A stretch of 64,000 nucleotides of DNA from Chloroherpetonaceae bacterium (GCA_046292465.1 JBKBRB010000005.1:22536-86535); one strand, 5' to 3'. Counted from the first letter of the stretch, positions 5,305 through 53,091 are shown. The notes: generated by a model from the letters alone, not told the origin. Program-made: numbers and translations.

Positions 5305-5365
5305 TTGACTTGAAAAGTAAGTATTATGGTTGGATTTTACTGTTCCGCAAACTTGTTGGATGGCA

Positions 5366-7413: not shown

Positions 7414-8151
7414 ATGACAACCGTTCTCATTACGCGCCCAAAAGCCGATGCTGTAGCGTTTGCCACCGCCCTTGCGCAGTATGGATTTAGTGCTGAATAT
7501 TTTCCAACGATTGAAATTGTGCCGTTGAGCGGATGGGCGTTGCCGAACCTTGAAGGCTACGATGGATTGATTTTCACAAGTGCCAACGCCGTGCGCGGCT
7601 TTTTATCGGAATTTCTTTCGCGCGCACCGAAACAGTTTGCTCGTCTGCGTGCCATGAACCACTACGCCGTCGGCATCAAGACAAATCAAGCCTTGCAAGA
7701 ATACGGCATAGATTCCACGCTTTACTCCGACAAAGGCAATGCGGCAGATTTAGCCGACCTTTTAAGGCAGATAGGCATTCGTGGCAAGCGGTTTCTCTTT
7801 CTTCGGGGCACACGCTCGCTCGGCACAATTGCCGAGTTCATCACTACGCACGGGGGCACTTGCGATGAACTCACCGTGTATGAAACGCGCACCCTTTCCT
7901 CCGAAGCATTGCACGAACTTTCCCTTTTGCTTTCTCGCGTCGATATAACTTGGGTAACATTTTTCAGTCCTTCCGCCGCACAAGCATTTTTTAACTTACT
8001 ACCCAAAGATTCTGCTCCTTTGCGCCAAAAGATTGCCGTCATTGGGAGCACAACGAAAGAAGCCGTCCTATCGCTCGGCTTTTCGGTTCACGCCATGCCT
8101 GATGTTCCGACTGCCGAAGCATTAGCAAAAGTGATTGCCTCGGTTACTTGA
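7414..8151 (+). CDS. hemD: Uroporphyrinogen-III synthase
   Basis: VLITRP, IFTSANAV, YET, FFSPSA and IGSTT motifs. Confidence 0.9.
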   Translation: MTTVLITRPKADAVAFATALAQYGFSAEYFPTIEIVPLSGWALPNLEGYDGLIFTSANAVRGFLSEFLSRAPKQFARLRAMNHYAVGIKTNQALQEYGIDSTLYSDKGNAADLADLLRQIGIRGKRFLFLRGTRSLGTIAEFITTHGGTCDELTVYETRTLSSEALHELSLLLSRVDITWVTFFSPSAAQAFFNLLPKDSAPLRQKIAVIGSTTKEAVLSLGFSVHAMPDVPTAEALAKVIASVT

Positions 8152-10426: not shown

Positions 10427-12711
10427 TGCGTTTGTTTGTTTTGTTGTTGGATTTTTTCAGATAGAGGCGTTGGCGGAAGTTCTCTACTTCCCCAATCGGT
10501 TGGCATATCGGTCATCTCAAAGTCGAGCGTTGCGCCGTTAGCAATTTCGCTGTGGCGAAGCCATGCGCGTTCAATCGGCATGCCGTTAAGTTTAAGCGAT
10601 TTCACATACACATTTTTTTCGGAGGCATTCGGCGCATTGATGATAAGCGCGTTTCCATTTTCAAGTTTCATGACGACTTTGGTAAAGACAGGACTTCCGA
10701 CGAAATACCAATCTTGTCCTGCATTTGGGAACAATCCGAGCGACGCCCACACATACCATGCAGAAAGCGTGCCCGAATCGTCGTTGCCCTTGTAGCCATC
10801 AGGCGCGACGCGAAAATCTCTTTTGAGAATATCTCTTGTAAAGAGTTGCACTCTATCGGCTTTGCCGGCGTAGATGTATTGCCATACAGTAAGCATATCA
10901 GGCTCGTTCCAAATCGTGAAGTAGCCTTCTTTGTCGCGATTCGTGAGCATTGTATCCCACTTGGCAATAAACTTTTCTTTGCCGCCAAGCAAGGCGATAA
11001 GCCGATAAAAATCATGCGGCACATAGCCCAAGTATTGCCACGCCGCGCCTTCGTAGTAATGCACTTCATAACTCCATACTTGACCTTCGGGGAAAATCAT
11101 CGTTGGCTTAAAAGGCTCAACCCATTTTCCGTCGGAGCGTTTCGGTCGGAAAAATCCTGTTGTCGTATCGAAGAGTTCAAAGACTTTTGAGGCGCGTTCG
11201 AGTGCAAACTTTGCCGATTCGCCTTTGCCAATCGCGTTAGCGAGCGCATAAACACAATAATCGTTGTAAGCATATTCGAGCGATTTGCTAACGGAAACCC
11301 ACTGTTTATCGGCGTAGAGAAATCCTTGTCGGAGATATTCGGGAAAGCGTCCTTTGCGCGCATTGATGCTTGGCTTATCGCCTGTGGTATCGGTAGCATT
11401 TTTCATCACATATTTGAAGGCTCTTTCGTAATCGACGCCTTGAAGTTTTTTGACGGCGGCATCGGCGAAGAGCACATCGGCATTGGTGCCGCCTTGCATT
11501 GAGGTGAAGGCGTTGCCTGTAAATCCGTCAGGAAGCCAGCCGCGATTGTCGGCAATATCCAAGAGCGCATTGAGCAAGTCTTTTTGAAGCGACGGAAGCC
11601 AAAGCGTAAAGAATGGATTTTGTGTGCGGTAAGTGTCCCAAATTGCGAAGTAGTTTGTGAAGGCTTTGCCTGTGGTTTTGAAACTGTCGGGCGTTTCGCC
11701 TGTGATGTCGGTTGGCATGAGGCACATGCGGTAAAGCGCGGTGTAAAAGAGCGTTTGTTCTGCTTCGCTTCCGCCTTGAATTTGAATTTTGTTTAAGAGT
11801 TCGTTCCAAGCGGTTTCCACTTGTGCGGCAATGCGGTTGAAGGTTGTGCTTTTTTCTTCAATGGCGCGAATGTAGTTATCGCTGTTTTGAAAACTCTTGT
11901 AGGAAATCGCGCTCGTGAGTTCAATGACTTCTTCGTCTTTATCAGCAATCCAACCGAGAATTGCGCCACACTCTTCGCTGTCTTCGGCTTGAATGGATTG
12001 AAGGTCGGAACGGATTTCAGACTGCTTATCGGAGAGCCTATAAACGGCGATGAAATCAGGTTTCTTGGACGGCTTTGCAGAAAAGAACGCTTGCATTTCT
12101 TTAGGGTCTGAACCGAATCCGCCATAAAAAACACCATGTCCGTGAATTATTCCGTCGTTGCCGATGCTGGCTTCAGAGCGTTTTGGCTTTTGTGGAAATG
12201 ACGCGCGCGACATGTTGAAAAGCAATTTCAGCGTATCACCTTTTGCATTTTGCTTGAAGGTGTAGCGGTGATGAGCGGTGCGTGCAGTAGCGGTGAGTTC
12301 GACCTGCACATTGGGTTTAGTGAGCCATGTGGCATAGTAGCCGGGCTTGCCGCGCTCGTTTGTTCGTGGCGATTTATAGCCGAAGTTTTCAAGCGTGGTG
12401 GAATTGCGCACAGGCATAACGAGGAAATTTCCGTATTCGGCGCATCCAATGCCGCTGACTTGATTGTGCACAAATCCAATGATGAACGAATCGGCGTGAT
12501 TGTATCCCATGTTAATCCAATCTTGCGTCTCGGTATGAGGCGAGAGCGCAATCATGCCGAAGGGCGTGGTTGCACCGGGGTGGACATTGCCTCCGGCGGT
12601 TGTGCCGATGAAGACATCAACTTGTTTAGCGACGGAGTTTGCGACCTCTTTTGCGGGTGGCGCGCATGAGAGCGCAGTTGTTAGAAAGAGTGTTAGTAAT
12701 CCCAATCTCAT
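10423..12711 (-). CDS. GH92 alpha-mannosidase family lipoprotein
   Basis: VDVFIGT, IWDTYR, YEGAAWQY, WNEP and GNDDSGTLSAWYV motifs. Lipobox ALSC. Stop overlaps the GH3 start (ATGA). Start chosen at ATG 12711; the ORF track gives 12756. Confidence 0.9.
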   Translation of the reverse strand: MRLGLLTLFLTTALSCAPPAKEVANSVAKQVDVFIGTTAGGNVHPGATTPFGMIALSPHTETQDWINMGYNHADSFIIGFVHNQVSGIGCAEYGNFLVMPVRNSTTLENFGYKSPRTNERGKPGYYATWLTKPNVQVELTATARTAHHRYTFKQNAKGDTLKLLFNMSRASFPQKPKRSEASIGNDGIIHGHGVFYGGFGSDPKEMQAFFSAKPSKKPDFIAVYRLSDKQSEIRSDLQSIQAEDSEECGAILGWIADKDEEVIELTSAISYKSFQNSDNYIRAIEEKSTTFNRIAAQVETAWNELLNKIQIQGGSEAEQTLFYTALYRMCLMPTDITGETPDSFKTTGKAFTNYFAIWDTYRTQNPFFTLWLPSLQKDLLNALLDIADNRGWLPDGFTGNAFTSMQGGTNADVLFADAAVKKLQGVDYERAFKYVMKNATDTTGDKPSINARKGRFPEYLRQGFLYADKQWVSVSKSLEYAYNDYCVYALANAIGKGESAKFALERASKVFELFDTTTGFFRPKRSDGKWVEPFKPTMIFPEGQVWSYEVHYYEGAAWQYLGYVPHDFYRLIALLGGKEKFIAKWDTMLTNRDKEGYFTIWNEPDMLTVWQYIYAGKADRVQLFTRDILKRDFRVAPDGYKGNDDSGTLSAWYVWASLGLFPNAGQDWYFVGSPVFTKVVMKLENGNALIINAPNASEKNVYVKSLKLNGMPIERAWLRHSEIANGATLDFEMTDMPTDWGSRELPPTPLSEKIQQQNKQTQ

Positions 12712-12830
12712 TCTTGCTGAAATAAACTCACCCTGCTCGCTGGCTTTTCCCGACAAGCAGGGTGAGCGTTTGTCTAACTTCTAAACAAGGTGGCGCGCAG
12801 AGAACATACTTTCCCCACACGCCCAAATCG

Positions 12831-15800
12831 TTATTTCACCAGCATCATTTTTCTTGTTTGCACGAAATCGCCGGCTTGCAAGCGATAGAAGTAGATGCCA
12901 CTTGCAAGGTTTGTCGCGTTGAACTGCACGGTGTATTCACCAGCGGCTTGGCGACCGTTGACGAGCGTTGCGACTTCGCGACCCAAAATATCATAGATTT
13001 TCAGGCTTACGTTGCCGGCATTAGCAATTGAATACCGAATCGTCGTTGTCGGGTTGAACGGATTCGGATAGTTTTGCGAAAGCGTATAGGACTTTGCCTT
13101 GTTGCTTGTCTTTTGCACACTTAACTGTTGAGCAAGCGGGTTGCGGATTGTTTTTGAAGCAATCGCAAATTGTCCGAACTCGTTGCCTGAAAGGTTAAAG
13201 GCTTTGAGATAATCGCCGTCGCGGTAGGTCGTCAGCGGTTTCCAAGGCGACGATGCATTCGGGCGATAGGCGATGTAGAGATTTTGCGGACGAACAATGC
13301 CTGTGAGCGCGCCGCAGTAAATTGAGATATCGAAGCGGGTTGATGCGCTTAATCCTGTTTGGTTGATTGTCCACACCCGACCAGGTATCACAAAGTGCTC
13401 GTTGCCATCGCCATCGTTAATGCGATAGACATTGTGAATGCCGACTGTATCATTGACCGAAAAGACCGGTTCAGGCGCAATCGTTCCAACAGAGGCACTA
13501 ATGCTTCCGTCTGTCGTTGAGCCGCGTTGGATTTCAATAAAGGCATTTGTATTTCCTAAGATGTAGGTGCCTTCGCCTGCTGCGCCTGATGCGACACTCG
13601 GAGTTGCCGATGTGCTTCTGCGGTTTGTTACAGGAATAGGATCATCGTTGGCAACAATTGAACGAATGAAGATATCGCCCACGAAACGCGGCGCAGAAGT
13701 TGTATAGACTGGAATGTAGTCGCCACCAACATTGTCTGGACCACGATTACCAACAACGCGTGCTTCACGGTCAGGGTCGTCGAAGTTGTGGCGATAGGTC
13801 ATGCCTGCAATTAAACCGGGATTGACTGTAATGTCCATATACTCGATTTGTGTGCTGTCGACCGTGTAAGCCGCATTTACACCGAATCCAAACACATTTC
13901 CGTAATCGAGTCCTCTGAAGTTGTTCGTAAAGTCGAAGATATACTCGTGATATTTTCCATCGGCAATGAGTGTAACCATGCGTTCGGGTTCGTTAGAGTA
14001 GCGGCGACCGCCGTTTGTTGCGCGACGTTGATAAAGCGTATCGCCATTTGGGAACACATAAGGCGGACGGGTTGCATCGGTCAGGATTACGCTGAGCGTC
14101 GGCGCAATATCGCGTTGGAATCGGTTGGTGTTTTCAGCATCGGTTTTGGCAATCACATGGAGCACTTTTGCGCGGCTCAAATTGACAGGCGTGGTGTCGG
14201 TTGCCGATGATTTGAAGTATTTGCGAATCGCGTCGCGTCCGCCACCGAGCGTATCAGGAAGCCCTCCCGGCAAATCAGTTCGTCCTTGCGGCAAGCCATT
14301 GATGCCGACTAAACCGCTTGTTCCGATTTTAAGCGCTGGTTGTCCTTCGTCTGTAACCCAGTTGAGCGTGTATCGGTCGCGCGTCGGCTCTCCGCCGAAA
14401 ATATCCAGAACGCTCCAACCATTAAGCAAGGTATCGCTGACGGAGAAGTCATCCAGCACAACACTTTGAGGCGCAGTATTTGCAGGTACGCCGATATTGT
14501 ATTTCAAACTCAAATACTGCTCGACTTGTGCAATTTCAGATGGCGATAAGACTCGGTTATAGACTAACACTTCGGCAATATCGTTTTGACCGTAGCCTGT
14601 GTTGTCAATCAGCGACCCGAGCCGTATACGCGATGTGTTTCCGATTCCCGTGAGCGTTGAGGTTAAAATTGCGAATTGATTTTCAGATAATGCAGGCGAA
14701 CCTGCTACACCGTTTGTTGAAAGGGTTGCTGTTCCAGAACCGCCGACCACATTAAACTGGCGTGTTCCGCCATTAGACATCGCATAATAGCCTGCCTCAT
14801 TGGAGAGCAATCCTTCGGGTGAACTTGGGTTGATGGTCGAACGACGATTTGCAGCGACCGCAAAAACGGTTGCATTGCCTGTAAGCGGCAAGGCTGTTGC
14901 CATCGTGTCGTTTACACCATCGAAGCGCATCACGACAAATCCTCTGCCTTGTGTGCCGTTATTGGCAATGGTTGGGCGTGCGTCGCCTGCCGAGCGCATG
15001 TGGTTGCGTGCTCCAGACGCATCGAGCCAAATGTTGGCTGGCTGACCGGTCAGTGTAACATTGCTTGATTCTAATTTGAGCCACAGTTCCAAGCCGTTTG
15101 ACGGAATGCCCGAAATCGGCGGTCGCACCAGTGGAATGTTATACTTGTTGCTCAAATAAAGCTCAATTTCATCGAGTTCAAGCTCGGAGAGCGTGCGTCC
15201 ATAAATGATGACTTCTGCAATGTCGTTTGACCCAGCACGAACCGAATCACGAAGCGCACCGAGGATGAGCGGTGAGCCGCTGCCAAGCGTGTTCGTAACT
15301 CCTTTCAATTCATACACCACAATCGCAAATTCGTCATATCCAAGTTCTCTCGATGTTTCTGACCCATTTTTTCGAATCCTTGGAGTACCGTTATTGCCAA
15401 TTCCACTCTCGCCGTGAATTCTGCGTCCGTCTTGCGACACATAACTGTTATAGGTTGAAAAGGCAAATCCCGTAGCTGGGTAGTCAGTTTTCGTGCCTAA
15501 CACCACATCGACAGTGTTTGGAGGCAACGGTGGATTTCCAGAACGCCTGTTAGCCAGAACGACAATAGCTGTTGCATCTGACTCCGTTGCCACATCCACC
15601 TTCATCAGCGGCTGGTCCTTCGTTGTCCCACCATTTCCAGTAAACCTGACCACAGGTTTGCCATTGATGCGATTTGTTACAAAGGTCGGGCGATATATGC
15701 CGGTTGAAGTCGCATTAGGCGTGTTATCGAAACCTGGCCAAGTCGACACCGAATCTCCATCGTTTAATCCCGTAATTCCATCGGCTTTTAGCCACACCAA

Positions 15801-16640
15801 TAAACCATCTTCACGAGGCGGTGGTGGCAGCACAAAGTTATACTTTTGAGCCAAATAATTCTCGACTTGAACCGTTTCATTCAAGTTCAAGATGCGGTCG
15901 TAAAGGAGAATTTCCGCAATATCGTGCCGACCTGAACGCATCGAGTCGCGCAATGCATTGATGACCAACGGGCTACCGCTTCCACCTGTGTTTTCAACAC
16001 CTGAAAGCTTAAAGGTCATAATCACAAACTCATTTTCTTCCAGTGTTGGTGCTGCATTACGATTCTTTTTGATGGTTGCTGTACCATTGTTGCCTAATGT
16101 TCCACCCTCAGCACGAATCTCGCGTCCATCTCGTGAGACGTAACTGTTGTAAGAAGAAATTCCAAATCCTGTTGTGGGATAGTCGTTCTTCGTTGCCATC
16201 AATACGTCGACAGTTTGATCCTGCAGTGGCGGCGTGCCTGGTCGCGTGTTCGCAAACACAGCAAATGCCGTTACATTCGAGCCTGTTGAAACACCTTGAA
16301 CAACCATCAAAGGCTGGTCTTTTGTCCAACTTCCATTTCCCAAAAAACGCACCACTTTTTTAGGCTGACCATTGATGTTGACCTGCATAAGCATTGGAAT
16401 ATGAACGCCTGATGACGCTGCTGATGGACCTACCACAGCGGGCCAACTTGCCACAGGCGTCCCGTCTGAACCTGTGAGTGTATCGGCTTTCAGCCAGAGT
16501 TGAAGCCCATTGGTTGGAACTTGTGCAAGCAGAGATTGGGCAAAACACAGCAGGAAGGCAAGCGCAGTAAGCGTTCCAAGTGTTTTTTGTTTCAAGGGTG
16601 AAACCGACTTGGACGCACGAAGAAGCGTAGCGTTTGTCAT
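12831..16640 (-). CDS. T9SS type A CTD protein with three LamG/concanavalin-like repeats and unassigned domains
   Basis: Signal peptide; three repeats of GLxxWLKxD...DIAEVxxYxRxL...YLxxKY; C-terminal [12 protein letters not shown]...GIYFYRL...RKMMLVK. Confidence 0.85.
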
Positions 16641-16730
16641 AGTTTGAACAAAGGTTTGTCGTTAATTAAGGAAGAAGACTTCAAAGAAAACTCTCAATGT
16701 TGTAGTGATACGATTAAAACTTGCTTGTTT

Positions 16731-16749
16731 ATTTAATCGTTTAACAGCG
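16731..16749 (-). promoter_or_regulatory. Candidate operator (LacI-like), copy 1
   Basis: ATTTAATCGTTTAACAGCG, identical to 27061-27079; quasi-palindromic core TTAAaCGaTTAA. Confidence 0.7.
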
Positions 16750-16787
16750 TTGCAAGTTAATTTTTTTCCATTCAATTCCAAAAGCGA

Positions 16788-17681
16788 TTAGCATGCGGTC
16801 AGCATTGCCGCACCGAAGACGCCCGCACTATCACCAAGCAAAGGTTTTACAATTTTTGTCTCGAGTGTATGATTAAAGACATATCGCTTTGTTGCTTCGA
16901 CGCCGTCGGTGTAAAGCAGGTCGATGTTGCCCACGCCGCCGCCCAACACAATCACATCGGGGTCTAAAATGTTGATGACGGTGGCAATGGCTTTTCCAAA
17001 ATTTTCGGTTAGGCGACGCACAGTTGCCGTAGCGTGTTCATCTTCGGCGCGCAAATGCCGCTCGACAATGTCTTTTAGTTTTCTTGTTTGACCGCTTTGT
17101 TTTCGGTAGAAGCGCTCGAGCCAAACGCCTGACAAAACCGTTTCAACACAGCCGCGCTTTCCGCAATAACATTGTTCGCCGTTTTCTTCGAGCATGTTGT
17201 GCCCCCATTCGCCTGCAATGCCTTGCTTGCCGTTAAGCACTTTTCCATTGACGACGATTCCGCCGCCGACACCTGTTCCCATAATCACACCGAAAACGAC
17301 CGACGCACCTTTTCCTGCTCCCAGCGACGCTTCCGCTAAGGCAAAGCAGTTTGCGTCGTTTGCAATTTCAATGGGCAGTCCTAAACTTTCTTCTAAGTCG
17401 CGTTTGAAGGGTTTTCCGTTTAGGCAAACGGTATTGCTGTTTTTGAGCGTCTGTGTGGAGGGTTCGAGCGTGCCGGGTGTTCCGATTCCGATTGTCGTTG
17501 GTTGGCTTCCAACTTCGTTTGTAACCTCGCCAATCAGTCGTTTGATTTGCGCGAGAATATGCGCGTAGCCTTTCTTTGATTCCGTCGGCATGCGTTTTCG
17601 CGCCAGCGTGTGCGTGCTTGTTGGATTTTCCAAAACTGCACATTCAATTTTTGTTCCGCCTAAATCAATTCCCCAAAGCAT
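16788..17681 (-). CDS. ROK-family sugar kinase (Mak/fructo-mannokinase-like)
   Basis: GIDLGGTKIE, NDANCFALAE, GTGVGGG, GEWGH and CYCGKRGCVE motifs. Confidence 0.92.
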   Translation of the reverse strand: MLWGIDLGGTKIECAVLENPTSTHTLARKRMPTESKKGYAHILAQIKRLIGEVTNEVGSQPTTIGIGTPGTLEPSTQTLKNSNTVCLNGKPFKRDLEESLGLPIEIANDANCFALAEASLGAGKGASVVFGVIMGTGVGGGIVVNGKVLNGKQGIAGEWGHNMLEENGEQCYCGKRGCVETVLSGVWLERFYRKQSGQTRKLKDIVERHLRAEDEHATATVRRLTENFGKAIATVINILDPDVIVLGGGVGNIDLLYTDGVEATKRYVFNHTLETKIVKPLLGDSAGVFGAAMLTAC

Positions 17682-17684
17682 TGT

Positions 17685-18992
17685 TCAAGCCTGTTCGATT
17701 TTTCCGTGCACGGAGCCTTTGAAGCCGTAATAAACAATGTAGAGATAGCAAATCGCTGGAAGCAAGAACGCGCTTTGCAAACCTGACGAATCCGCGATTG
17801 CGCCCATCGCGACGGGCAAAAGCGCGCCGCCAACAATCGACATAATCAAGATGCTCGAGCCTGCATTGGTGAGCTTTCCGAGACCGTCGATGCCGAGCGT
17901 GAAAATGGTTGGGAACATAATCGAGTTGAACAGTCCGATGGAAAGCACCGTCCACATTGCGAATGCGCCTGATGAAAAGGTTGCTGTTAATGCAAGCAGT
18001 GCCGCCACACCTGCAAAGATGCCGAGCAAAACCCCCGCCCGAATTTTTTGCAAAAGTGCCGAGCCGATGAACCGACCAACCATTGCTCCGCCCCAATAGT
18101 AAGAGACATAGTTTGCTGCCTCGGCTTCCTTCAAACCTTGAATCTCGGACAAGCCGATGAAGTTGATAAGAAAACTTCCGATGGAAACTTCTGCGCCGAC
18201 ATACACAAAAATTCCAACTGCACCAAGCGCGAGATGCGGCACTTTAAGCGCCTCACCAAATGCACTTTCCTTTTCCACATCTTTTTCAGACTCGCCCTCA
18301 ACGGTTTCAATTTTGGGAAGATTAAAGAGCGCAATCACGCCCGCAAGTGCAAAGAGCGCGAGCGCAAGTCCGATGTAAGGCAGTTGCACCGACGCTGCCT
18401 CTGCAAGTTTGTAAGCATAAAGTTCTTCAGGCGAAAGCGTTTTGAGTTCTTCTGCGGTTTTTGCTGCCGAGTTCAAAATGAGCAACCCGCCGAAATACGG
18501 CGCCACCGTTGTGCCAAGCGAATTGAACGCTTGTGCAAGATTCAATCGGCTTGATGCGGTTTCAGGCTTGCCGAGCACGGACACATATGGATTTGCTGCT
18601 ACTTGCAGAATCGTAATGCCTGACGCAAGGATAAACAATGCGCCTAAAAAGAGCGGATACGCTAAGGTTGCCGCCGCCGGAAAAAAGAGCAACGCCCCTA
18701 TGCCCGCTGTGCATAGCCCGACCACGATTCCGCGCTTATAGCCAACCCACGCAATCACTTTTCCCGCAGGTAGCGACATCAGGAAATACGCCGAAAAAAA
18801 TGTGAATTGAATAAGCGCCGATTGCACATAGTTCAGGTCAAACACGGCTTTGAGGTGTGGAATTAAAATATCGTTCAAGCATGTGAGAAATCCCCACATA
18901 AAGAAAAGCCCTGTTACGACGATGAACGCCGGCGTGTAGTTCTTTTCAGAACTTGCTGTCGTTGCACTTTCAGGTGTTGCGAGATTTGCCAT
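17685..18992 (-). CDS. MFS glucose/galactose (FucP/GluP family) permease
   Basis: LFFMWGF, LIPHLK, QVAANPY, RLNLAQAFN and YVGAEV motifs. Confidence 0.92.
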   Translation of the reverse strand: MANLATPESATTASSEKNYTPAFIVVTGLFFMWGFLTCLNDILIPHLKAVFDLNYVQSALIQFTFFSAYFLMSLPAGKVIAWVGYKRGIVVGLCTAGIGALLFFPAAATLAYPLFLGALFILASGITILQVAANPYVSVLGKPETASSRLNLAQAFNSLGTTVAPYFGGLLILNSAAKTAEELKTLSPEELYAYKLAEAASVQLPYIGLALALFALAGVIALFNLPKIETVEGESEKDVEKESAFGEALKVPHLALGAVGIFVYVGAEVSIGSFLINFIGLSEIQGLKEAEAANYVSYYWGGAMVGRFIGSALLQKIRAGVLLGIFAGVAALLALTATFSSGAFAMWTVLSIGLFNSIMFPTIFTLGIDGLGKLTNAGSSILIMSIVGGALLPVAMGAIADSSGLQSAFLLPAICYLYIVYYGFKGSVHGKIEQA

Positions 18993-19097
18993 TTTGTTTT
19001 TGGTTTGATACTTCGTTCCGATATGCTCTGTGCCAACAACTTTTTGGATTCTTCACTCCGCTTTGCTTTGTTCAGACTGACAAGTCTTCATGTCGGA

Positions 19098-20120
19098 TTA
19101 GAAAAGAAGCGAGAGCGAAAGCCACTGCGGTGCGTTCAAGCGTCCGTAGGATTGGTAAGTGTAATCTAACCGGAAGACGAGATAGCCGAGATTATATTTC
19201 AAGCCTGCACCGAGCGTGAAGCCGGCTTCTGCAAATTCGACGAAGAGTTGGTTATATCCTGCGCGAAGGAAGAGCATATCGCGCCAGCCGTATTCCATTC
19301 CAACATTTGCATGTGGCTGCATGTCGTTCGGATTGACAGCATCGAGCGCAAGGGTGAGTCGGTTGCTTGCGTCTTCGAGCACTTCGGTTGCAATGCCGAC
19401 CCTGAACATCAGCGGCAAGTTCCATGCATCGGTTGAAAGTTCAGCGGGAATGCCGTTGTTGTCTCCATTTAAGCCTGTGCCTGTTGAAGCCGTAATGAGC
19501 AAGGCGTTCCCGCGCATGCGCATTGTGCCGCCGAAGTTGTGCATCGTCGCCGCCAATCGGAATCGTTTTGAGACTTCGAACAAAACGCCTAAATCTATGG
19601 CAACCGTTTGTGCCGACGATTGATAGAGCGACTGTGAGATAAGTTTTGCAGTAATTCCGACCGAGAAGCGGTCTGTAAGAGGACGTGCGTAAGAGAGATT
19701 GAACGAGAGGTCAGAGGTTGAGAAAAATTCGCCTGTGCCGTCGGGGTCTCTTTCGGTGGTGCGTTCGATATCGCCAGAGGTCAGCAAGGTTACTGAGCCG
19801 CCGAATGTGCCACCATCGCCGAAGTTTGCGGTTGCGCCTGCCCAAGCAATGCGTGTATCGACGAGCCAGTTGGAGTGAATGAACGCTGTTTGCACGCGCT
19901 CGTTTCGCGCAATTGCGGCAGGATTCCAATAGAGCATGGAGACGTCGTTTTTCATTGCCGTAAATGCGCCGCCCATTGCCACGGCACGCGCGCCAATCCC
20001 AATGCCGAGAAATTGCGCTCCGGTTGTGCCGACTTTAGACTGCGCAAATGCGCTTTGGCACATCTCCAACAAGAGCACTAAAAGAACCCTTGAGTAAAGT
20101 TTTCTCATTGTCCGTGTCAT
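19098..20120 (-). CDS. PorV/PorQ-family outer-membrane beta-barrel
   Basis: Signal peptide, then FLGIGIGARAVAMGGA...YWNPA, typical of FadL/PorV-like barrels. Alternating beta-strand pattern; C-terminal Phe. Confidence 0.8.
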   Translation of the reverse strand: MTRTMRKLYSRVLLVLLLEMCQSAFAQSKVGTTGAQFLGIGIGARAVAMGGAFTAMKNDVSMLYWNPAAIARNERVQTAFIHSNWLVDTRIAWAGATANFGDGGTFGGSVTLLTSGDIERTTERDPDGTGEFFSTSDLSFNLSYARPLTDRFSVGITAKLISQSLYQSSAQTVAIDLGVLFEVSKRFRLAATMHNFGGTMRMRGNALLITASTGTGLNGDNNGIPAELSTDAWNLPLMFRVGIATEVLEDASNRLTLALDAVNPNDMQPHANVGMEYGWRDMLFLRAGYNQLFVEFAEAGFTLGAGLKYNLGYLVFRLDYTYQSYGRLNAPQWLSLSLLF

Positions 20121-23100
20121 TTAATCAAGACGAATTTTCCTGTTTTTGTGCCGATGCCTGGTGCATCTAAGTGATAGAGATATAATCCGTAAGCCACATC
20201 GAGCCGCTCACGTGAGCGCAAATCCCAAGTTACATCGCCCTCGTTCGAGCCATCTTGTGTCAGGGTTTGGACTAAATCGCCACGAATGGTGTAGATGCGA
20301 ATCGTTGAGCCTTTGGGCACATGCGTAAAGCGAATGACTCTCTCACCGCGTCCGCGCGTTACGCCCAGGGGCAAGGGTTGCTCGTATTGGCTTCGTGCGA
20401 TGTAAGGATTTGGCACAACCTTGACTCGGTCGAGCGCATTTTTTGCGCGGTCCTTATCGACGAATACGGCACGGGTTTTAAATTGAAAACTATCGCCTGT
20501 TCGGAAAGGCTTGTTGAAACGCACCACGAACTTATCGCCCACACGAGGCACGATGCGATTCGGTCCTAAGCGCGGATTGAAGGCAAATGTCCAAGTGAAG
20601 ACTGAATCGGCAAGGACCTGACTCGGTCCATATGGACGCGGGTTTTTGTAGAATGGCAATCCAATTTCAATGGGGCCTGAGTTTTGCGTTGCAACCGTGT
20701 CGAATACATTCGTTGAGCGTTTGGTGAGAAAGAATCGTACCGTATCGCCTGTGCTTAAATTGCGAATGATGAAGTTTGTCGGTCGCCCGATGAAACTTTG
20801 TCCAATCGTTGTTGGCAAGCCTGATGTTCTGATGTAGCGCACGGTGTCGCTTCGCCATGTGCCGAAGGGCACGATTTCAATTTCGTAGTCGTCCGGTCGC
20901 AAGACGGTTGCAAACACACCGAGAGGATTAACGAAGTAGTTGCGTCCTGCGGTGTCAGTGGCTTGCACGAAAGCGTCATAGCCGTTGATGTCTTCGCGTG
21001 TCCATTTTGTCTCTGCTCGGTTGAGTTCGCCTCGGATGCGGTTTCGAATCGTCAGGTATATGCCGTTAAAAATTTGGTCGTCGGCAATGTAGAGTTGGCG
21101 GTCGCGCGTGGCATAAGAACTTTGTTCGTTGAGCGGTCGGCGATTGCGTTTAATGACTGTGTCGGGCGAATTAGGATTGGTTCTATCAATGACAGAGAAA
21201 AATGATGTGGCGGCTAATTGCTCTTCGAAATCATCGTCGTCAATTAAGCCGTTGCCGTTGTTGTCTAATCCATCTGTGGCGGTGTCGAAGAATTTCAGCA
21301 CATATGTTTTATCCTGAACGGTATCAGGGTCGACGATGGTGTATTGTACTGTTCCGTTTCCAACGATGTTGCCAATTGGTTGAAGTGCGCCGCCCTCTGA
21401 CGGAATCGTGAATCCGGCGACCTTTGGTCGTGGCACGACGGCTACGACATTCGTTCCCAAAACGAAATTGCCTTGTCCGTCGGGTCTTGCGCTTGGCGTG
21501 TTTTCAGCGGGATAAAGGCTCAAGGCAGTATCGCCACGCGTGTAAGCCAACACGGCGTAGAAGTATAGCCGCCCGTTGACGACGTTGGAGTCCGTAAAGG
21601 TGTGTTGCAATCCAGAGTTGTTGCCTAAGTAATAGGCAATGCCGCGCGACTGTTGCAACAGTTCGCGTGTCGTCAGTGGAAAGTTTCCGAAGACATCGTT
21701 GTCTAAATCAAACTGTACTAATGCTTTGAACTGTTGAGCCTCTTCGCCGCGCGAGCCTGTAATGAGCAGTGCGTCTGCAAAGTTTGGGTCAGTGGCTTTG
21801 ATGATTTTATAGCCCTCGAAATTTTTGACGCGCGGGTCGTCGGTGCCAACAGGCAGGTTCAATCGGCGTCGGATAAATTCATCACGATAATCTTCGGCGG
21901 CGGCATCCCAATAAAGCGTTACGCGGCGGTCATCCGTGTAATAGCCAAGCTTTGGTGGTGTCGGCGGACGGGCGAAGTTGTAGTTCGCATCGTAAATTGC
22001 CTGCACAATATCTTTTGTTTGAACGATTGATTGCGCGTCATTACCGAAGAGCAAGGCAATCGAGAGCCGCTCTGTTTGTCCTGACGCCAGCGGAAAGTAG
22101 CCAGTGCTGTAAAGGTAATCTTGGTCAATCGTTTGATTGAGGTCAGCAATGATGTCGTAGGTTCCAGGCTGCGCCAATTGCGGAATCAAGTCGACGGTTT
22201 GCGGACTTGCAATTGGCAATCCTTCGTTCGGGCGAATTGCAAATCCTGTCAATCCAATTTGGTCAGATTCTTTGACATCGACGGCATCGATGAAGCCGTC
22301 GCCGTTGTTGTCGAAGCCATCATCGCGCCGTTCATCAATCATCGGATAAATTGTGCGATTGATTTCCAGCGGGTCGTAAATGCCACTTCCTGCGGGAATG
22401 CCGGTTGGAAAGCGTTGCGCAAGTTGAATGTAATTGACGTAGGCAAGCGCCGGTTGTTCTCTTGGAATGACGATGCGTTGGATGAGGTCGTATTCAATGC
22501 GGCGGCGCCTGACATGCTGATTGTAGTTTTCATCGATGATACCGTTGAGATTATCATCTAAAAGGTTGTTATCAATTTCTTTGAGCACAGTTCCTGAGGC
22601 ACTCAATCGGTAAGGAATGCCGAGCGAGACGACGGTTGTATCGACATTCGGCATTCTCACGACACGCCGCACATATTTGAGGATTCGGCGGTTGTTGACG
22701 AGCGTGTCGCGCTGTTCAATCAAGACCAGTAGGTTTCCGGGGACAATAGTTCGGCGAAATGCTGTATCGCCTGCGACGATGCTGTAATCGTAATCACCTG
22801 TGCCGGGCAGTTTGCTGAAAATTGAGGGTTGTTCAGTTGGATTATCCGTTTTTTCCCAGTCACCGTCGTTATCAATTCCGTCAAAGGGGTTGCCGGGGCT
22901 TTCTAAAAATGCTGCGCCTGCAAATCCGGGCGGGTAAAAGTTTCGATTCCAACTGCCTGCAACTGGTGGGTTATTGACGGTGCTTTTGAAGCTATAAGTA
23001 ATTGAGTTGGCTTGGTCGAAGGCAGAAACGCCGTCAATACCGCCCGTGCCGCCGCCGCCGATGTCGGTTCCGACGACCGAGCCGAAGAAAACTTTATCGT

Positions 23101-24004
23101 AATCGTAAATCGAGTTGTTTTTCACCTCATAAAGCCAGAAGATGACGTCTTGGGCAAGGAAGTTTGAGAATTGCAAGCCGCGCACTCTTAAGTCTAATCC
23201 GAAGCCGTAGCGAGTCGGCTGTGCGGGGTTTGGCTGGAAGTTATATCGCGTGAAATACTGTTTGTCTTTTCCGTCGGTAGCGGCAAAGTAGCTTTCTTGG
23301 TCGGCGTTCGTGACGCCCGGTCCGAAATAGCCGTTCCAGACGGCGCGCCCTGTGGCAGGGTCAGTAGGATAGTTTTCATTGCCAGGCCACGATGCAGGCC
23401 ATGAATTTGGAATATGACTCATTGCCACGCTGTTTTGCAGTGGATTCCAAAATCCTTCGTAGGGGGTGATGCCCCAGAATTCGCCTGTCCCCGACTTTCC
23501 GCCAGGGGCTTCGCCGAAGCGCACCGAAGGATGGCTGGTTACATACCACTCTTGATAGCGCAACGCCATTGCCAACGTATCGCCTTTGAAAAATCTGCCG
23601 ACCGTGTCTGCGAACGCGACGCCTACTGTGCGACGGTCCCGCAACCGAAATCCTCTGACGCTGTCTGGACCAACGGTGAAGTTAATGAGCGTGTCGCGCA
23701 CACCTTGAATGCCGATGATAATGTTGATGTCGGGCAAGTAGGTATTTTCTTCAACCGGCCATGCACTTCTAGGCAACTGGGTAAAGCCTGCTGGCTGACC
23801 AATAAAGCCTGTGTTCGCAAAGGCTGTTTTCACTCGATTTCCGTTGTGTAGCCCAACCCGCGTGAATCGTATATCGTAGTTCGTGTTAATTGGTCCTGCT
23901 TCTTGTTGCGCATAAAGCCATTTGGTTGGAACAATCACGGCAGTGCCAACAAGCAGAGCGCAGAGAAGCAAATGACGGTAAATTTTTGTGCGTGCGTGTT
24001 GCAT
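20117..24004 (-). CDS. Large secreted hypothetical protein with a variant T9SS-like CTD
   Basis: Signal peptide; repeated DGxDNxGxGxxD motifs; C-terminal VKVVPNPY...IRIYTIRGDLV...GLYLY...GKFVLIK. Stop overlaps the PorV start. Confidence 0.8.
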   Translation of the reverse strand: MQHARTKIYRHLLLCALLVGTAVIVPTKWLYAQQEAGPINTNYDIRFTRVGLHNGNRVKTAFANTGFIGQPAGFTQLPRSAWPVEENTYLPDINIIIGIQGVRDTLINFTVGPDSVRGFRLRDRRTVGVAFADTVGRFFKGDTLAMALRYQEWYVTSHPSVRFGEAPGGKSGTGEFWGITPYEGFWNPLQNSVAMSHIPNSWPASWPGNENYPTDPATGRAVWNGYFGPGVTNADQESYFAATDGKDKQYFTRYNFQPNPAQPTRYGFGLDLRVRGLQFSNFLAQDVIFWLYEVKNNSIYDYDKVFFGSVVGTDIGGGGTGGIDGVSAFDQANSITYSFKSTVNNPPVAGSWNRNFYPPGFAGAAFLESPGNPFDGIDNDGDWEKTDNPTEQPSIFSKLPGTGDYDYSIVAGDTAFRRTIVPGNLLVLIEQRDTLVNNRRILKYVRRVVRMPNVDTTVVSLGIPYRLSASGTVLKEIDNNLLDDNLNGIIDENYNQHVRRRRIEYDLIQRIVIPREQPALAYVNYIQLAQRFPTGIPAGSGIYDPLEINRTIYPMIDERRDDGFDNNGDGFIDAVDVKESDQIGLTGFAIRPNEGLPIASPQTVDLIPQLAQPGTYDIIADLNQTIDQDYLYSTGYFPLASGQTERLSIALLFGNDAQSIVQTKDIVQAIYDANYNFARPPTPPKLGYYTDDRRVTLYWDAAAEDYRDEFIRRRLNLPVGTDDPRVKNFEGYKIIKATDPNFADALLITGSRGEEAQQFKALVQFDLDNDVFGNFPLTTRELLQQSRGIAYYLGNNSGLQHTFTDSNVVNGRLYFYAVLAYTRGDTALSLYPAENTPSARPDGQGNFVLGTNVVAVVPRPKVAGFTIPSEGGALQPIGNIVGNGTVQYTIVDPDTVQDKTYVLKFFDTATDGLDNNGNGLIDDDDFEEQLAATSFFSVIDRTNPNSPDTVIKRNRRPLNEQSSYATRDRQLYIADDQIFNGIYLTIRNRIRGELNRAETKWTREDINGYDAFVQATDTAGRNYFVNPLGVFATVLRPDDYEIEIVPFGTWRSDTVRYIRTSGLPTTIGQSFIGRPTNFIIRNLSTGDTVRFFLTKRSTNVFDTVATQNSGPIEIGLPFYKNPRPYGPSQVLADSVFTWTFAFNPRLGPNRIVPRVGDKFVVRFNKPFRTGDSFQFKTRAVFVDKDRAKNALDRVKVVPNPYIARSQYEQPLPLGVTRGRGERVIRFTHVPKGSTIRIYTIRGDLVQTLTQDGSNEGDVTWDLRSRERLDVAYGLYLYHLDAPGIGTKTGKFVLIK

Positions 24005-24027
24005 CGTCTAGTTCTCGTCAATTTGAT

Positions 24028-27006
24028 TTAGAAGTTAATTGACATTCCCAGCATGATTCGGCGCGGCTCTGAAAAGAAGTCAGGACGCAAGAAAAAGTCG
24101 GGCAATGAATTAAACGCTTGATTTTGTTCCGATACCGTATAGCGATACAGTTCATAGGTGGCGCGCCCAGTTGTCGAGTAGACAATGATTTCGTTCGCCG
24201 TATCAAACAAGTTGAAAATTTGTGCAAATACTGCCAGATTGGTTTCTCCAATTTTGAAGTTGCGTGTCGCACGCACATCGACTGAAAAGGTCTGAGGTTT
24301 GACGCCACCATTCTGAAATAGCCTTGCTAATCCTTGCGTTGGTGGTTGCGGCACAGTTGTCGGAGAGTAAGGAAAACCAGAGCCATAACGACCGATAACA
24401 GAGACATTCCAATCACGGTCATCGTAAAGGACTTCGGCGTTGAGCGTATGCGTCTGGTCCCAATCCAATCGTATGAGTTGTGTTTCAGGCTCGTTGCCGC
24501 TTGCAATCGACGCAATTGCCGTTCGTGGGTCGGGTGAGTTGCCTTGTGCCACTTGGAGCGTGTAGTTGATGTTGAAACTAATGCTTTGCGAAAGCCGCTT
24601 GCTCAGCGTTGCCACAATCCCACGCACGAAAGCATAGTCGGTATTGTCAAAAACGAAGTATTGTCCGCCTGTAATCAATTGTCGAGCAAATGCCGAGCCT
24701 GCAAGGTCGCGAATATCACGATAGTAGGCGCTCATCGTTAGCCCAATCGTTTCGCCGATTTGTTGCTGAATTCCGATTTCACCAGTAATAGTGCGTTGCG
24801 GACGAATGTCTGGATTGCCAAACGGCGAGTTAATGCGACTGGTAATGTCGGTCTCTCGGAACTTGAAGAGCGCATTTTCATAAAGCAGGTAAAAGTTTGG
24901 AACTTGAAAAAACTGCCCATAAGAAAAGTAAAACATACCGCGCTCCGTGATAGGGAACGAGACACCGATTCTGGGACTAAACGCAAACTTTGGCGTAGCA
25001 TTTTTCCGACGATTACGGAATCCGTTTCGCGCTGCAAACACGCTGTCGCTATCAATTTTGAAAAAGAGGCTCGGGTCTAACGGGTCAGTTGGCACTTGGT
25101 CGCGTGAGTTAAAGTAATCGAAGCGAATGCCGAGATTGATGATGAAGTTATCGAATTCAAGCTTGTCTTGAATGTAGGCAGCAAACTCAATTGGGTTGCG
25201 CGTGTAGCGTTCGTGTCCAAATTCAGTTTCAGCATCAGGAATGTAGGGCTGAAAACCATCGCGAATTTCACCAGTTCGGTCGCGAATCTCAATAAACTCA
25301 AAATCCAACCGATGATACTTGAAATCAACGCCTGTTTTGACAAGGTTATGTTTATTGAGCTGTGTGGTTAGGTCGAGTCGAAATTGATTCGTGAGCGTTG
25401 TTCGGTCGACACGCGAATTTTTCGTGCCTCCATGAACGAAATTCACACCTCGTCTTACTGCACCAGGCACACCTAAGTCTTGATAACGCGCATCGAAGGG
25501 GTCTTCAAAGGCGTAATTCTTGAATCCTGTTCGGAACAGCGAATATCGTCCGTCGAGGAAGCTGTTGGAGTTTAGCGTGTAGGTTATGCCCAAAATGTTG
25601 GTGAACCCGCTTCGAAAATTTTGCAGTTCACCATCTGGGTTAAGACTCCATGCGTGGTCGTAGCCTCTGAAATTTTCATCTTCGTAATTGAAACTGTAAA
25701 ACGCCTTGAAGGTGCTAGACGGACGAAAGGTGAGTTTTCCTTGAAGCGAGTAGCGTTCATATTCGTTAAGTGGCACAGGGGCGTTATCGCCACTTCCAAA
25801 ATTTTCATAGCGGTTAAAGCGCTGCTCCAATCCGAATTGATTACTCACGCTGAACGGAATAAAGATGCGCGTTCCGTTTTGTCGGTCGATAATGGCGCGT
25901 CCGTTTTCGTCAGTTGCAATGAAGACGGGATTTCTGCGTCCATCAACGATTGAGGTCGGAATTCCTTGTTCGTTGATAAATGAGCTAATTGCATTAGGGT
26001 CGTCTGGTGTTGTGAGGCGAAATTTTCCGGCAATCGCAGGCGCATTGTAAGGATTTAGCGGATTGCCTTGTTGAAGCACATCGTCCGTTCGGAATTGACG
26101 GCGTCCAAAGAGATAGCCTTCGTTTCGGAAATATCGTCCCGCCAAATAAAACGACAATTTATCTTTCAAAAACGGAAACGGACCGCTGATTGAGGCTTGC
26201 ATGTTCGGCGTTGCAAAGGGGGAGAAGTTGTTCATGTTGCGATAAAGGTCGCGTCGCCCTGTAAGATAATCACCGCCGTAAAGTTGAACTTGCCCTGAAT
26301 AAGTCTCGCCACCTTCTTTGGTAACGATGTTCACAATGCCCGACATGGCTTGCCCATATTCAGCATTGAACGCACCTGTAATCACCTGCACTTCTTGAAT
26401 CGACTGCGGGTCAATGAAGGTCGAGCCGCCTCTGCCGGCGTTGCCGTCGAAGACGTCCGTTACCGTTACGCCGTCAACTAAGTAACCAACTTCGCCAAAC
26501 CTGCCGCCACGAAAACTTCCGCCCACAATCCCCGACTGCAAGCGAATCACTTGGCTGACATCTTCAACAGGCAGTTTCTGAATTTGCTCCCCGGCAACTA
26601 CCGCCGACGAAAACGTTTGGTCTTTGATGACAATCGGTCGCTCGGCACTAACCACCACTTCTTGCGCCTGCACCGATTGCGACGAGAGTTCAACATCGAC
26701 GCGCGTGGTTAGGTCGACACGAATGGTAATTTTTTCAACTGTTTTGGATTGATAGCCAACATAAGTTACGCGGAGCGAATACTGCCCAGGAGGAATGTTC
26801 AGAATCGTATACTCGCCATCGAAGTTGGTTTTCGCGCCAAGTTTCGTGCCTTGAAGAACAACTGTCGCACCGATGAGCGGCTCACCTGTTTGTGCGTCTT
26901 TGACAACACCTGTGAGTTTTCCTGTTGTTCCGAAGTATGCAGAAGTGCTTGCGCTACTTGCAAGTAATAAGAAAAGCAAGGCAATGTGTTTCATTCTCAT
27001 TCGCAA
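24028..27006 (-). CDS. TonB-dependent receptor with N-terminal carboxypeptidase-regulatory-like domain (not SusC-type)
   Basis: GVVKDAQTGEPLIGATV...YVGY domain; plug YLVDG...GAFNAEYG; C-terminal EPRRIMLGMSINF. Confidence 0.92.
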   Translation of the reverse strand: MRMRMKHIALLFLLLASSASTSAYFGTTGKLTGVVKDAQTGEPLIGATVVLQGTKLGAKTNFDGEYTILNIPPGQYSLRVTYVGYQSKTVEKITIRVDLTTRVDVELSSQSVQAQEVVVSAERPIVIKDQTFSSAVVAGEQIQKLPVEDVSQVIRLQSGIVGGSFRGGRFGEVGYLVDGVTVTDVFDGNAGRGGSTFIDPQSIQEVQVITGAFNAEYGQAMSGIVNIVTKEGGETYSGQVQLYGGDYLTGRRDLYRNMNNFSPFATPNMQASISGPFPFLKDKLSFYLAGRYFRNEGYLFGRRQFRTDDVLQQGNPLNPYNAPAIAGKFRLTTPDDPNAISSFINEQGIPTSIVDGRRNPVFIATDENGRAIIDRQNGTRIFIPFSVSNQFGLEQRFNRYENFGSGDNAPVPLNEYERYSLQGKLTFRPSSTFKAFYSFNYEDENFRGYDHAWSLNPDGELQNFRSGFTNILGITYTLNSNSFLDGRYSLFRTGFKNYAFEDPFDARYQDLGVPGAVRRGVNFVHGGTKNSRVDRTTLTNQFRLDLTTQLNKHNLVKTGVDFKYHRLDFEFIEIRDRTGEIRDGFQPYIPDAETEFGHERYTRNPIEFAAYIQDKLEFDNFIINLGIRFDYFNSRDQVPTDPLDPSLFFKIDSDSVFAARNGFRNRRKNATPKFAFSPRIGVSFPITERGMFYFSYGQFFQVPNFYLLYENALFKFRETDITSRINSPFGNPDIRPQRTITGEIGIQQQIGETIGLTMSAYYRDIRDLAGSAFARQLITGGQYFVFDNTDYAFVRGIVATLSKRLSQSISFNINYTLQVAQGNSPDPRTAIASIASGNEPETQLIRLDWDQTHTLNAEVLYDDRDWNVSVIGRYGSGFPYSPTTVPQPPTQGLARLFQNGGVKPQTFSVDVRATRNFKIGETNLAVFAQIFNLFDTANEIIVYSTTGRATYELYRYTVSEQNQAFNSLPDFFLRPDFFSEPRRIMLGMSINF

Positions 27007-27060
27007 AGTTCAGGTACATTTTCAAGCGCGAATGATTCACGCTTATTGTATTGGCAACGA

Positions 27061-27079
27061 ATTTAATCGTTTAACAGCG
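27061..27079 (-). promoter_or_regulatory. Candidate operator (LacI-like), copy 2
   Basis: Identical 19-mer to 16731-16749, 54 bp upstream of the receptor ORF. Confidence 0.7.
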
Positions 27080-27146
27080 AGCGAATATAAAACTTTGCGA
27101 TATAAAACAAAATTTTTCTGCAACAATTTTCCGAGACCGACTTTCA

Positions 27147-27932
27147 TTATGTCGCGTCGCTTTCCTGTTTCCAATAACTGCTCAAATCGCTTTCCAGCGT
27201 CAAGCCCTCGCCGATTAACACTGCATCAAAGCCCGCTTCTTCGATTTTGAGCAAATCGGCTTTGGTTTGAATCCCACTTTCAGAGACCACCGTCACTTCT
27301 TTCGGAATTTCTTTTTTCACCCGAAGCGACGTTTCAAGCGAGACTGAAAAGTCATGCAAATTGCGATTATTAACGCCGATGATGGTTGCGTCATATTTCA
27401 TTGCTCGTTCCAACTCCCACTCGTCGTGCACTTCGGTTAGCACATGCAAACTGATTTCCTTTGCTAATTGCAGGAAGGATTGCAGTCGAGCATTATCCAG
27501 CGCGGCGACAATCAAGAGCATGGCATCTGCACCAACAAGGCGCGTCTCCAAAATTTGCGTTTCATTGATGATGAAGTCTTTGCGTAAGACCGGCAGTTCA
27601 AAGCGTGAGCGAACTTGTTCGAGATACTCGATTTTGCCTTGAAAAAACTTTTCATCAGTCAGCACCGAAAACGCGGACGCGCCGAGATTGAGATACATTT
27701 CAGCGCGCTCAATCGGCTTGAAGTCTTGGACAATTACGCCGCGCGAGGGCGAAGCCTTTTTCAGTTCCGCAATCAAGCGTAGCGTTTCGTCTTCGCGCCG
27801 AATGGCTTTGGCAAAGTCGCGCGTTGGGTTCAAATACTTACGCTCCGCCTCAAAGGTTCTTGAAATGCCGCGCAGTTTCAGAGCGGCAACTTCGCTACGC
27901 TTTTCGTCCAAAATTTTATCGAGATAGGTCAT
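27147..27932 (-). CDS. trpC: Indole-3-glycerol phosphate synthase
   Basis: IAELKKASPS, SVLTDEKFF, LRKDFI, GVNNRNL and VSESGI motifs. Confidence 0.96.
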   Translation of the reverse strand: MTYLDKILDEKRSEVAALKLRGISRTFEAERKYLNPTRDFAKAIRREDETLRLIAELKKASPSRGVIVQDFKPIERAEMYLNLGASAFSVLTDEKFFQGKIEYLEQVRSRFELPVLRKDFIINETQILETRLVGADAMLLIVAALDNARLQSFLQLAKEISLHVLTEVHDEWELERAMKYDATIIGVNNRNLHDFSVSLETSLRVKKEIPKEVTVVSESGIQTKADLLKIEEAGFDAVLIGEGLTLESDLSSYWKQESDAT

Positions 27933-46596: not shown

Positions 46597-46618
46597 TTCT
46601 CTTCACTGATTTTAAGCC

Positions 46619-46652
46619 AAACGAGAGCACCACTTGCAGGCGTCTCTCGTTT
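46619..46652 (+). terminator. Stem-loop between the Spy-like gene and the regulator
   Basis: aaacgagag...ctctcgttt followed by T-rich sequence. Confidence 0.45.
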
Positions 46653-53077: not shown

Positions 53078-53091
53078 CCCGAAACTATCTG

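Follow-up and report, generated by a model that had tools for sequence, protein, structure and literature searches.

A short element that occurs twice in a 64,000-nucleotide stretch of DNA from a Chloroherpetonaceae bacterium (GCA_046292465.1 JBKBRB010000005.1:22536-86535; this whole stretch is called the window below) links glycan uptake with glycan hydrolysis in a utilisation locus and has been kept in Chlorobi relatives over the range of a family. It is under strong purifying selection, has a defined position relative to conserved promoter boxes and is tied to one type of locus over that range. We are highly confident that it is a functional cis-element and consider it likely to be an operator bound by a protein as DNA. 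That this protein is of the LacI family is a balanced call (probability roughly 0.5), and the evidence on both sides is set out below.

The 19-mer ATTTAATCGTTTAACAGCG (plus strand) lies at 16731-16749 (site 1) and 27061-27079 (site 2), the only two matches in 64 kb when up to 3 mismatches were allowed. Both the count and the coordinates agree with an earlier note on this DNA, which had placed the repeat in two intergenic spots ahead of minus-strand units. Dinucleotide-preserving shuffles of the window gave an expectation of 0.03 copies, and none of 100 shuffles held two or more; the 12-mer TTAAWCGWTTAA was also confined to these two positions. Site 1 is located between the stop codon of a ROK-family kinase gene (16788) and the start of a gene for a 1269-amino-acid (aa) protein (16640), and site 2 between the stop codon of IGPS/trpC (27147) and the ATG of a TonB-dependent receptor (TBDT) gene (27000). 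The flanks of the two copies are unrelated, and similarity ends at the motif. The earlier note had taken all 19 bp as the functional unit, but the outer CGC of the 19-mer varies in relatives (TGC, CGT or CCT), and we therefore define the unit as 13-16 nt:

16731-16746, minus strand: site 1, operator-like element TGTTAAACGATTAAAT, exact match, 92-107 nt upstream of the ATG of the 1269-aa gene
27061-27076, minus strand: site 2, operator-like element TGTTAAACGATTAAAT with core TTAAACGATTAAA, exact match, 61-76 nt upstream of the TBDT ATG

Both copies follow what appear to be promoters. Read along the minus strand, site 1 consists of TTTG (16779-16782), 19 nt, TAACTTGC (16752-16759), 2 nt and CGCTGTTAAACGATTAAAT, and site 2 of TTTG (27108-27111), 18 nt, TATATTCG (27082-27089), 2 nt and CGCTGTTAAACGATTAAAT, so that the geometry reported earlier (TTTG, 19 or 18 nt, a TAnnTT-like box, 2 bp, motif) was recovered at both sites. 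The operator-like element itself starts 7 nt past the TAnnTT box in each case. Differential RNA sequencing in Chlorobaculum tepidum yielded the RpoD promoter motif TTG-N17-23-TA[ATC][ATC][AT]T, in which the second block is the -7 element (bioRxiv 10.1101/172254). Both predicted promoters match this motif (TTTG-N19-TAACTT and TTTG-N18-TATATT) and their boxes are conserved in relatives, which bears out the placement of the element just downstream of a Chlorobi/Bacteroidetes-type promoter box. Because both promoters fit the C. tepidum motif, the operator is predicted to span about +1 to +16, a position that suggests repression by occlusion of RNA polymerase.

16754-16782, minus strand: predicted internal promoter at site 1, TTTG (16779-16782), 19 nt, TAACTT (16754-16759), from conserved blocks TTTGGAATTGA and AAAAAAnTTAnCTT
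27084-27111, minus strand: predicted promoter at site 2, TTTG (27108-27111), 18 nt, TATATT (27084-27089), from conserved blocks

No terminator-like site was found between the ROK gene and the site 1 promoter. Sigma-70, sigma-54 and extracytoplasmic function (ECF) sigma factor readings of the region were rejected because of their spacing.

The conservation of the element was followed by footprinting in close relatives. Homologues of the ROK kinase led to syntenic loci of five further species-level relatives (L084/085, L086-088, L089, L097 and L098), named at source as Chlorobiales or Chloroherpetonaceae bacteria; their ROK proteins are 86-91% identical to that of the window, and pairwise nucleotide identity of the ROK genes is 80-87%, except for L086 versus L097 (93%). 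At both promoters, all 13 columns of the core TTAAACGATTAAA are invariant (window, L084, L086, L089 and L098, with L097 contributing site 1 only), and site 1 keeps the 18-mer GCTGTTAAACGATTAAAT unchanged in six genomes (window, L084, L086, L089, L097 and L098). As a neutral yardstick, four-fold degenerate sites of the neighbouring ROK gene were compared among these six genomes, and only 25 of 110 (23%) are invariant. The orientation of the motif and its 7-nt gap to the TAnnTT box are unchanged in these relatives, the sequence right after it is unalignable or carries indels, and the other conserved upstream blocks in the footprint are TTTG(G/T) and the TAnnTT box. In sum, the motif was kept in every orthologous promoter found, the loss of conservation that the earlier note had named as refuting did not show up, and the proposal that the two promoters of the locus share a cis-element under selection holds up. 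The motif was absent from the non-syntenic ROK loci L090-L096, in which the ROK protein is ~80% identical and the contexts are unrelated. Eighty GTDB loci retrieved through the transporter gene of the locus, a member of the major facilitator superfamily (MFS), did not contain it; one close relative was among them (L001, 88% nucleotide identity), on a contig that stops before site 1.

More distant relatives extend this range. Homologues of the TBDT led to the Chloroherpetonaceae loci L218, L219 (GCA_033763895.1) and L220 (GCA_053496755.1), with TBDTs 53-57% identical to that of the window. Their cassette runs TBDT, ~1280-aa protein, PorV-like barrel and MFS transporter, then a glycoside hydrolase (GH) of family GH16 tagged for the type IX secretion system (T9SS), followed by GH125 in L219 and L220. 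The motif stands upstream of the TBDT gene as AATTAAACGATTAAGT in L218 and as ATTGAAACGATTAAAT in L219 and L220. Moreover, L218 carries a second copy, AGTAAAACGATTAAAT, ahead of its 1258-aa T9SS gene, mirroring site 1. The outer limit of conservation seen was L221, where the TBDT is 48% identical, an ABC transporter replaces the MFS gene and the motif is absent. The family-wide invariant of the motif is the 10-mer AAACGATTAA. Of its 33 copies in 1.78 Mb of fetched loci, 21 are promoter sites, one lies inside an L097 gene and eleven are scattered in unrelated loci, those of the latter that were checked (three in L070) being coding. The three matches to AAACGATTAA beside a Thalassotalea LacI gene fell inside a transporter coding region and were hence rejected as sites.

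These data make it extremely improbable that the two copies are a chance repeat or the remnant of a dispersed or mobile repeat. The observation that speaks for such an origin comes from a metagenome scan, in which the 16-mer TGTTAAACGATTAAAT had at least 119 matches, as expected for 16 AT-rich bases in a huge collection; among those listed, all came from unrelated organisms and many were coding. Many of the listed matches encode, on the opposite strand, the GTPase motif PNVGKSTLFNRLT (GKSTLFNRL; L100, L104, L122, L129, L137, L159, L160, L164, L178 and others), and this conserved motif in coding DNA explains much of the background for an AT-rich 16-mer. We regard the scan as uninformative on the regulon, the 16-mer pattern being too short for that collection; among the matches listed, it yielded neither a further regulon member nor an autoregulated regulator gene. 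Against a chance or mobile origin stand the two copies in 64 kb where 0.03 were expected, the placement of both at promoters, the conservation in at least 8 species-level genomes and the lack of similarity past the motif. Nor did the motif recur elsewhere in the ~20-kb related loci at up to 3 mismatches. It is not a dispersed repeat, an outcome that the earlier note had named as refuting its proposal, and footprinting effectively refutes this explanation.

The central CG and the symmetry pattern of the site fit the LacI family. The consensus is T-K-A-A-A-C|G-A-T-T-A-A, ~12-16 bp long with a central CG. This CG is invariant in all 15 sites, and positions ±1 (C/G), ±3, ±4 (A/T) and ±6 (T/A) are always complementary. 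Position ±2 is never complementary (A on both arms) and ±5 varies (T/G/A); the 12-bp core is symmetric at 5 of 6 arm positions, and ±7 and ±8 are not complementary. Operators of the LacI/GalR family are expected to be palindromes of 16-22 nt whose inverted repeats are strongly conserved. On this evidence the AAnCGnTT layout fits LacI/GalR operators. The central 8-mer AAACGATT equals that of Escherichia coli galOE, GTGTAAACGATTCCAC (PMC2887952). A survey of 1303 LacI-family regulators found a central CG in 1173 motifs, and over 75% of the sites lay between 30 and 140 nt ahead of the start codon (PMC4052901). The distances here, -61 to -76 at site 2 and -92 to -107 at site 1, fall inside that range.

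Several observations weigh against a LacI-family repressor. Symmetry stops at ±6, and the right arm ATTAAAT is far better conserved than the left. Scored with a position weight matrix, the sites reach 22-27 bits forward versus 6-11 in reverse. All 15 sites share one orientation relative to transcription; a symmetric dimer has no need of this, unlike an RNA element or a monomeric or asymmetric binder. This last point is weak evidence, because the sites may descend from only two ancestral promoters, but it lends some probability to a non-LacI binder or a role at the RNA level. The regulator gene is the other difficulty. With LacI and PurR as queries, tblastn searches of the window in all frames and of L081-L098 detected no gene of the LacI family, and the sole DNA-binding regulator that Pfam scans of sizeable and gap open reading frames (ORFs) recovered in the window was an OmpR-type response regulator. 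None of the listed metagenome matches to the 16-mer adjoined a LacI gene or genes of the locus. Local LacI regulators, for their part, usually adjoin their targets and regulate their own genes in more than three quarters of cases (PMC4052901). There was also no LacI-family gene among the gene calls in L218-L221. The earlier note had placed the repressor outside the window, and in keeping with this, neither a LacI-family gene nor another plausible sugar regulator was detected in the 64 kb.

Together with the LTXXQ (CpxP/Spy-like) gene that precedes it, the OmpR-type gene spans 45703-47379 (plus strand), with no adjacent histidine kinase. The direct repeats at 10-11 bp that are expected for such a regulator do not match the site.

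That the operator is bound by a protein from a different family (GntR, DeoR, ROK-type, XRE, TetR, or one that binds as a monomer or asymmetrically), or by a regulator other than a simple repressor, has in our view a good deal less than an even chance. It would account for the missing LacI gene in the window and related loci, for a right arm that is nearly invariant beside a left arm that varies at -5, -7 and -8, and for the common orientation of 15/15 sites, and TTAAA-N3-TTAAA also allows a direct-repeat reading. Nevertheless, an invariant CG at the centre, flanked by complementary ±1, ±3, ±4 and ±6, is the LacI-family hallmark, the 8-bp spacing of the direct repeat differs from the 10-11 bp of OmpR/PhoB-type sites, and the position over the predicted start favours a repressor over an activator.

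LacI genes do accompany this type of transporter in other phyla. In gammaproteobacteria and Acidobacteria, LacI genes with CG-centred palindromes adjoin orthologues of the gluP MFS gene, the gammaproteobacterial operators being TGACAGCGCTGTCA or TGGAAGCGCTTCCA. An Ignavibacteriaceae locus (L034) contains a LacI gene (4515-5522, minus strand) with GCAAACGTTTGC palindromes on both sides, at 4478-4495 and 5526-5556; the region upstream of the gene holds two tandem GCAAACGTTTGC copies in a textbook autoregulated arrangement, and a gluP MFS orthologue is present in the same locus. It follows that LacI control is common for this transporter type. The motifs TGACAGCGCTGTCA, TGGAAGCGCTTCCA and GCAAACGTTTGC differ from ours, so that the argument is one of analogy, not orthology, and an orthology argument from the gammaproteobacterial operators was rejected on the same ground. 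The best 120 homologues of the Ignavibacteriaceae LacI were all at least 68% identical to the query, and the few with an organism name were Ignavibacteria, none being named as Chloroherpetonaceae.

The fixed spacing from the promoter box raises the question of whether the element is part of the core promoter, be it an element of the start site or of the initially transcribed region, or a target for an alternative sigma factor. The 7-nt gap to the TAnnTT box at all genus-level sites and the left arm TTGAAAC of L219 and L220, which we take to resemble ECF -35 elements, are in keeping with this idea. It is nonetheless quite improbable: there is no conserved CGT-type -10 at 16-17 nt (the conserved TCGT is 24-27 nt off), L219 and L220 have 3 extra nt between the candidate TAnnTT box and the element, the motif stands at no other promoter in the 64-kb window, and sigma-54 spacing does not fit on a direct reading.

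The predicted location at +1 to +16 also speaks for an action at the RNA level, in which the 16 nt would form the 5' end of both mRNAs and be read by an RNA-binding protein, a small RNA or a local hairpin controlling stability or translation. This is unlikely, even if the strictly conserved orientation agrees with it and the motif can pair downstream in the window (ACGAUUAAA/UUUAAUCGU at site 1, AACGA/UCGUU at site 2), and even if TCGT downstream of site 1 is positionally conserved. Folding energies were no different from those of shuffles (z = -1.48 and -0.11), the downstream complements are unconserved in sequence or register among relatives, neither intergenic region had an Rfam match at E up to 1, and it is the distance to the promoter box that is fixed, with the start-codon distance varying through indels. 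A related long shot is that the element is not a LacI operator at all but an orientation-dependent start-site element, read through an unrecognised type of regulator, whether on the DNA, by an asymmetric binder, or in the mRNA, of which it would form the first 16 nt. If true, such a regulator would stand in for SusR, hybrid two-component system (HTCS) or ECF control in the Chloroherpetonaceae cassettes of TBDT, 1295-aa protein and PorV-like barrel that lack SusD.

The earlier note had also described an inverted copy of the motif near site 1:

16705-16719, plus strand: inverted copy GTGATACGATTAAAA, 12/15 match, centre at +27 from the centre of site 1

The copy is present with its 12/15 match, and it is doubtful as a second operator: of the relatives, the closest one, L084, is alone in keeping the arms. 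It scores 14.8 bits against the weight matrix, versus 26.7 for site 1. Comparable inverted sites at +25 to +29 occur at site 1 of L084, at site 2 of L086 and L089 and, weakly, at site 1 of L098; TCGT(T) on the coding strand (~16711-16714 in the window) is conserved at +25 to +28 from the centre of site 1 in six genomes. At best, the inverted copy may be a weak auxiliary site. Separately, the 5' leader of the TBDT gene contains a 10-bp hairpin, UAAGCGUGAAUCAUUCGCGCUUG (27023-27045, minus strand), which is kept in four genus-level relatives and absent from L098. Changes in it are one-sided (A-U to G-U) without compensatory pairs, and as DNA it is an imperfect 17-bp palindrome.

All genes of the sugar region lie on the minus strand, in the order trpC/IGPS, site 2, TBDT to ROK, site 1, 1269-aa gene, GH92 and GH3:

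27147-27932, minus strand: trpC/IGPS, upstream neighbour of site 2, stop at 27147
24028-27000, minus strand: TBDT (CarboxypepD_reg, Plug and barrel by Pfam), ATG at 27000, first gene of the upstream unit
20117-24004, minus strand: 1295-aa protein, no significant domain, always adjoining the TBDT gene by synteny
19098-20120, minus strand: PorV/PorQ-family outer-membrane beta-barrel (NF033709, 212 bits versus cut-off 90)
17685-18992, minus strand: MFS glucose/galactose-type transporter, gluP (TIGR01272, 358 bits versus cut-off 202)
16788-17681, minus strand: ROK-family sugar kinase, 297 aa (PF00480), stop at 16788
12831-16640, minus strand: 1269-aa secreted protein with T9SS C-terminal sorting domain (PF18962 / TIGR04183), first gene of the downstream unit
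10423-12756, minus strand: GH92 glycoside hydrolase (alpha-mannosidase family), from domain searches
8144-10426, minus strand: GH3 beta-glucosidase, BglX-like (NF011678, 811 bits versus cut-off 666)

The best NCBIfam matches of the ROK kinase are fructokinase and N-acetylglucosamine kinase, both below cut-off, and the protein is not a regulator, since it has no helix-turn-helix domain. The label 'LamG' that had been given to the 1269-aa protein is not supported: Pfam Laminin_G_3 reached only E=0.014, under the cut-off.

In the mechanism that we propose, at even odds, both copies would be operators for one regulator encoded outside the window, which most probably belongs to the LacI/GalR family and represses as a helix-turn-helix dimer. 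Once bound, it would obstruct RNA polymerase both at the promoter ahead of the uptake genes (TBDT, 1295-aa protein, PorV-like barrel, gluP MFS transporter and ROK kinase) and at the internal promoter that serves the hydrolysis genes (T9SS-secreted 1269-aa protein, GH92 and GH3). Both units would be derepressed when breakdown of the glycan sets free a sugar or sugar-phosphate. We infer that the reader is a protein rather than an RNA, that it represses, that it is of the LacI family and what induces it. Because the window and related loci yielded no LacI-family gene, the same holds for the identity of the regulator, the sign of regulation and the wider regulon; that the repressor defines the regulon, as the earlier note proposed, is plausible.

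The cassette itself is recurrent. A SusD-less arrangement resembling a polysaccharide utilisation locus (PUL), with a TBDT, a ~1290-aa domainless protein and a PorV/PorQ-family barrel, usually with gluP MFS next (17685-27000, minus strand, in the window), was seen in L003, L006, L008 and L218-L221, from Chloroherpetonaceae plus several Bacteroidota metagenome-assembled genomes (MAGs). The ~1290-aa protein may have a surface glycan-binding role like that of SusD elsewhere. Within the downstream unit, a hairpin with a 13-bp stem (12792-12823, minus strand) lies in the 74 nt that separate the 1269-aa T9SS gene from GH92; it was flagged as terminator-like with a weak T tail and could be a partial terminator or a processing site.

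With 99.8% identity, the window matches a contig of the MAG assembly GCA_046291895.1, in which a seeming split of the TBDT into two ORFs (L081, 2685-2784) is a scaffold gap of 100 N and not a frameshift. Three hot-spring DNA metagenome runs hold 81-99% of the window's sampled words, and two marine metagenomes and one coded organism hold 5-12%. All six runs listed are DNA, and no RNA runs holding the window sequence were found. This hot-spring Chlorobi-like genome also carries gas-vesicle genes, gvpL/F and gvpG, at 52298-53325 (plus strand).

Together, these results provide a concrete and testable regulatory link between glycan uptake and hydrolysis in uncultured hot-spring relatives of the Chlorobi, a lineage for which we found no description of a regulon. 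The 13-16-bp site can serve as bait for the regulator, as a query for the extent of the regulon in available MAGs and as a marker when similar SusD-less TBDT loci are annotated. A single repressor that acts through operators at two promoters is a textbook mechanism, and the value of the proposal lies in annotation rather than surprise.

Among known systems, the regulation of Bacteroidetes PULs by SusR, hybrid two-component systems or ECF sigma/anti-sigma pairs is comparable in that a TBDT-led glycan cluster is found in a bacterium of the Fibrobacteres-Chlorobi-Bacteroidetes (FCB) group. However, none of those regulator types is encoded beside the locus in any relative, and SusD is missing here as well. 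The cre site of CcpA, TGWAANCGNTNWCA, is a global catabolite-control site found at many promoters in Firmicutes. It has the AAnCGnTT architecture in common with our element, whereas the latter was seen only at this type of locus.

The Ignavibacteriaceae LacI of L034, from the same FCB superphylum, shares an AAACG-type operator core and a gluP MFS orthologue in the locus. It differs in having its own gene in the locus and perfect palindromes with GC arms, where we find TTAA arms and no regulator gene. The local LacI sugar regulons described by Ravcheev et al. 2014 (PMC4052901), a text that makes no mention of a Chloroherpetonaceae-like Chlorobi lineage, are similar in their CG-centred even palindromes, in the location 30-140 nt upstream and in conservation at orthologous promoters. 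Here, in contrast, the regulator gene is not adjacent and symmetry is limited to 12 bp.

A further comparison is with the GalR/GalS system of E. coli. No GalR-like gene was found in the window and related loci, the outer arms of galOE are GTGT/CCAC versus TGTT/AAAT here, and GalR loops OE and OI together with HU, whereas our locus has a single site over the predicted start and at most a weak second site 25-29 bp off. The gal operator OE is an imperfect palindrome of 16 bp centred on CG, to which our element, symmetric over its 12-bp core, can be likened, and the two have the same central 8-mer, including the asymmetric ±2 (PMC2887952). In E. coli, one trans-acting repressor controls sugar transport and catabolism from several promoters, and we propose that a single regulator would act alike on the two promoters of this locus.

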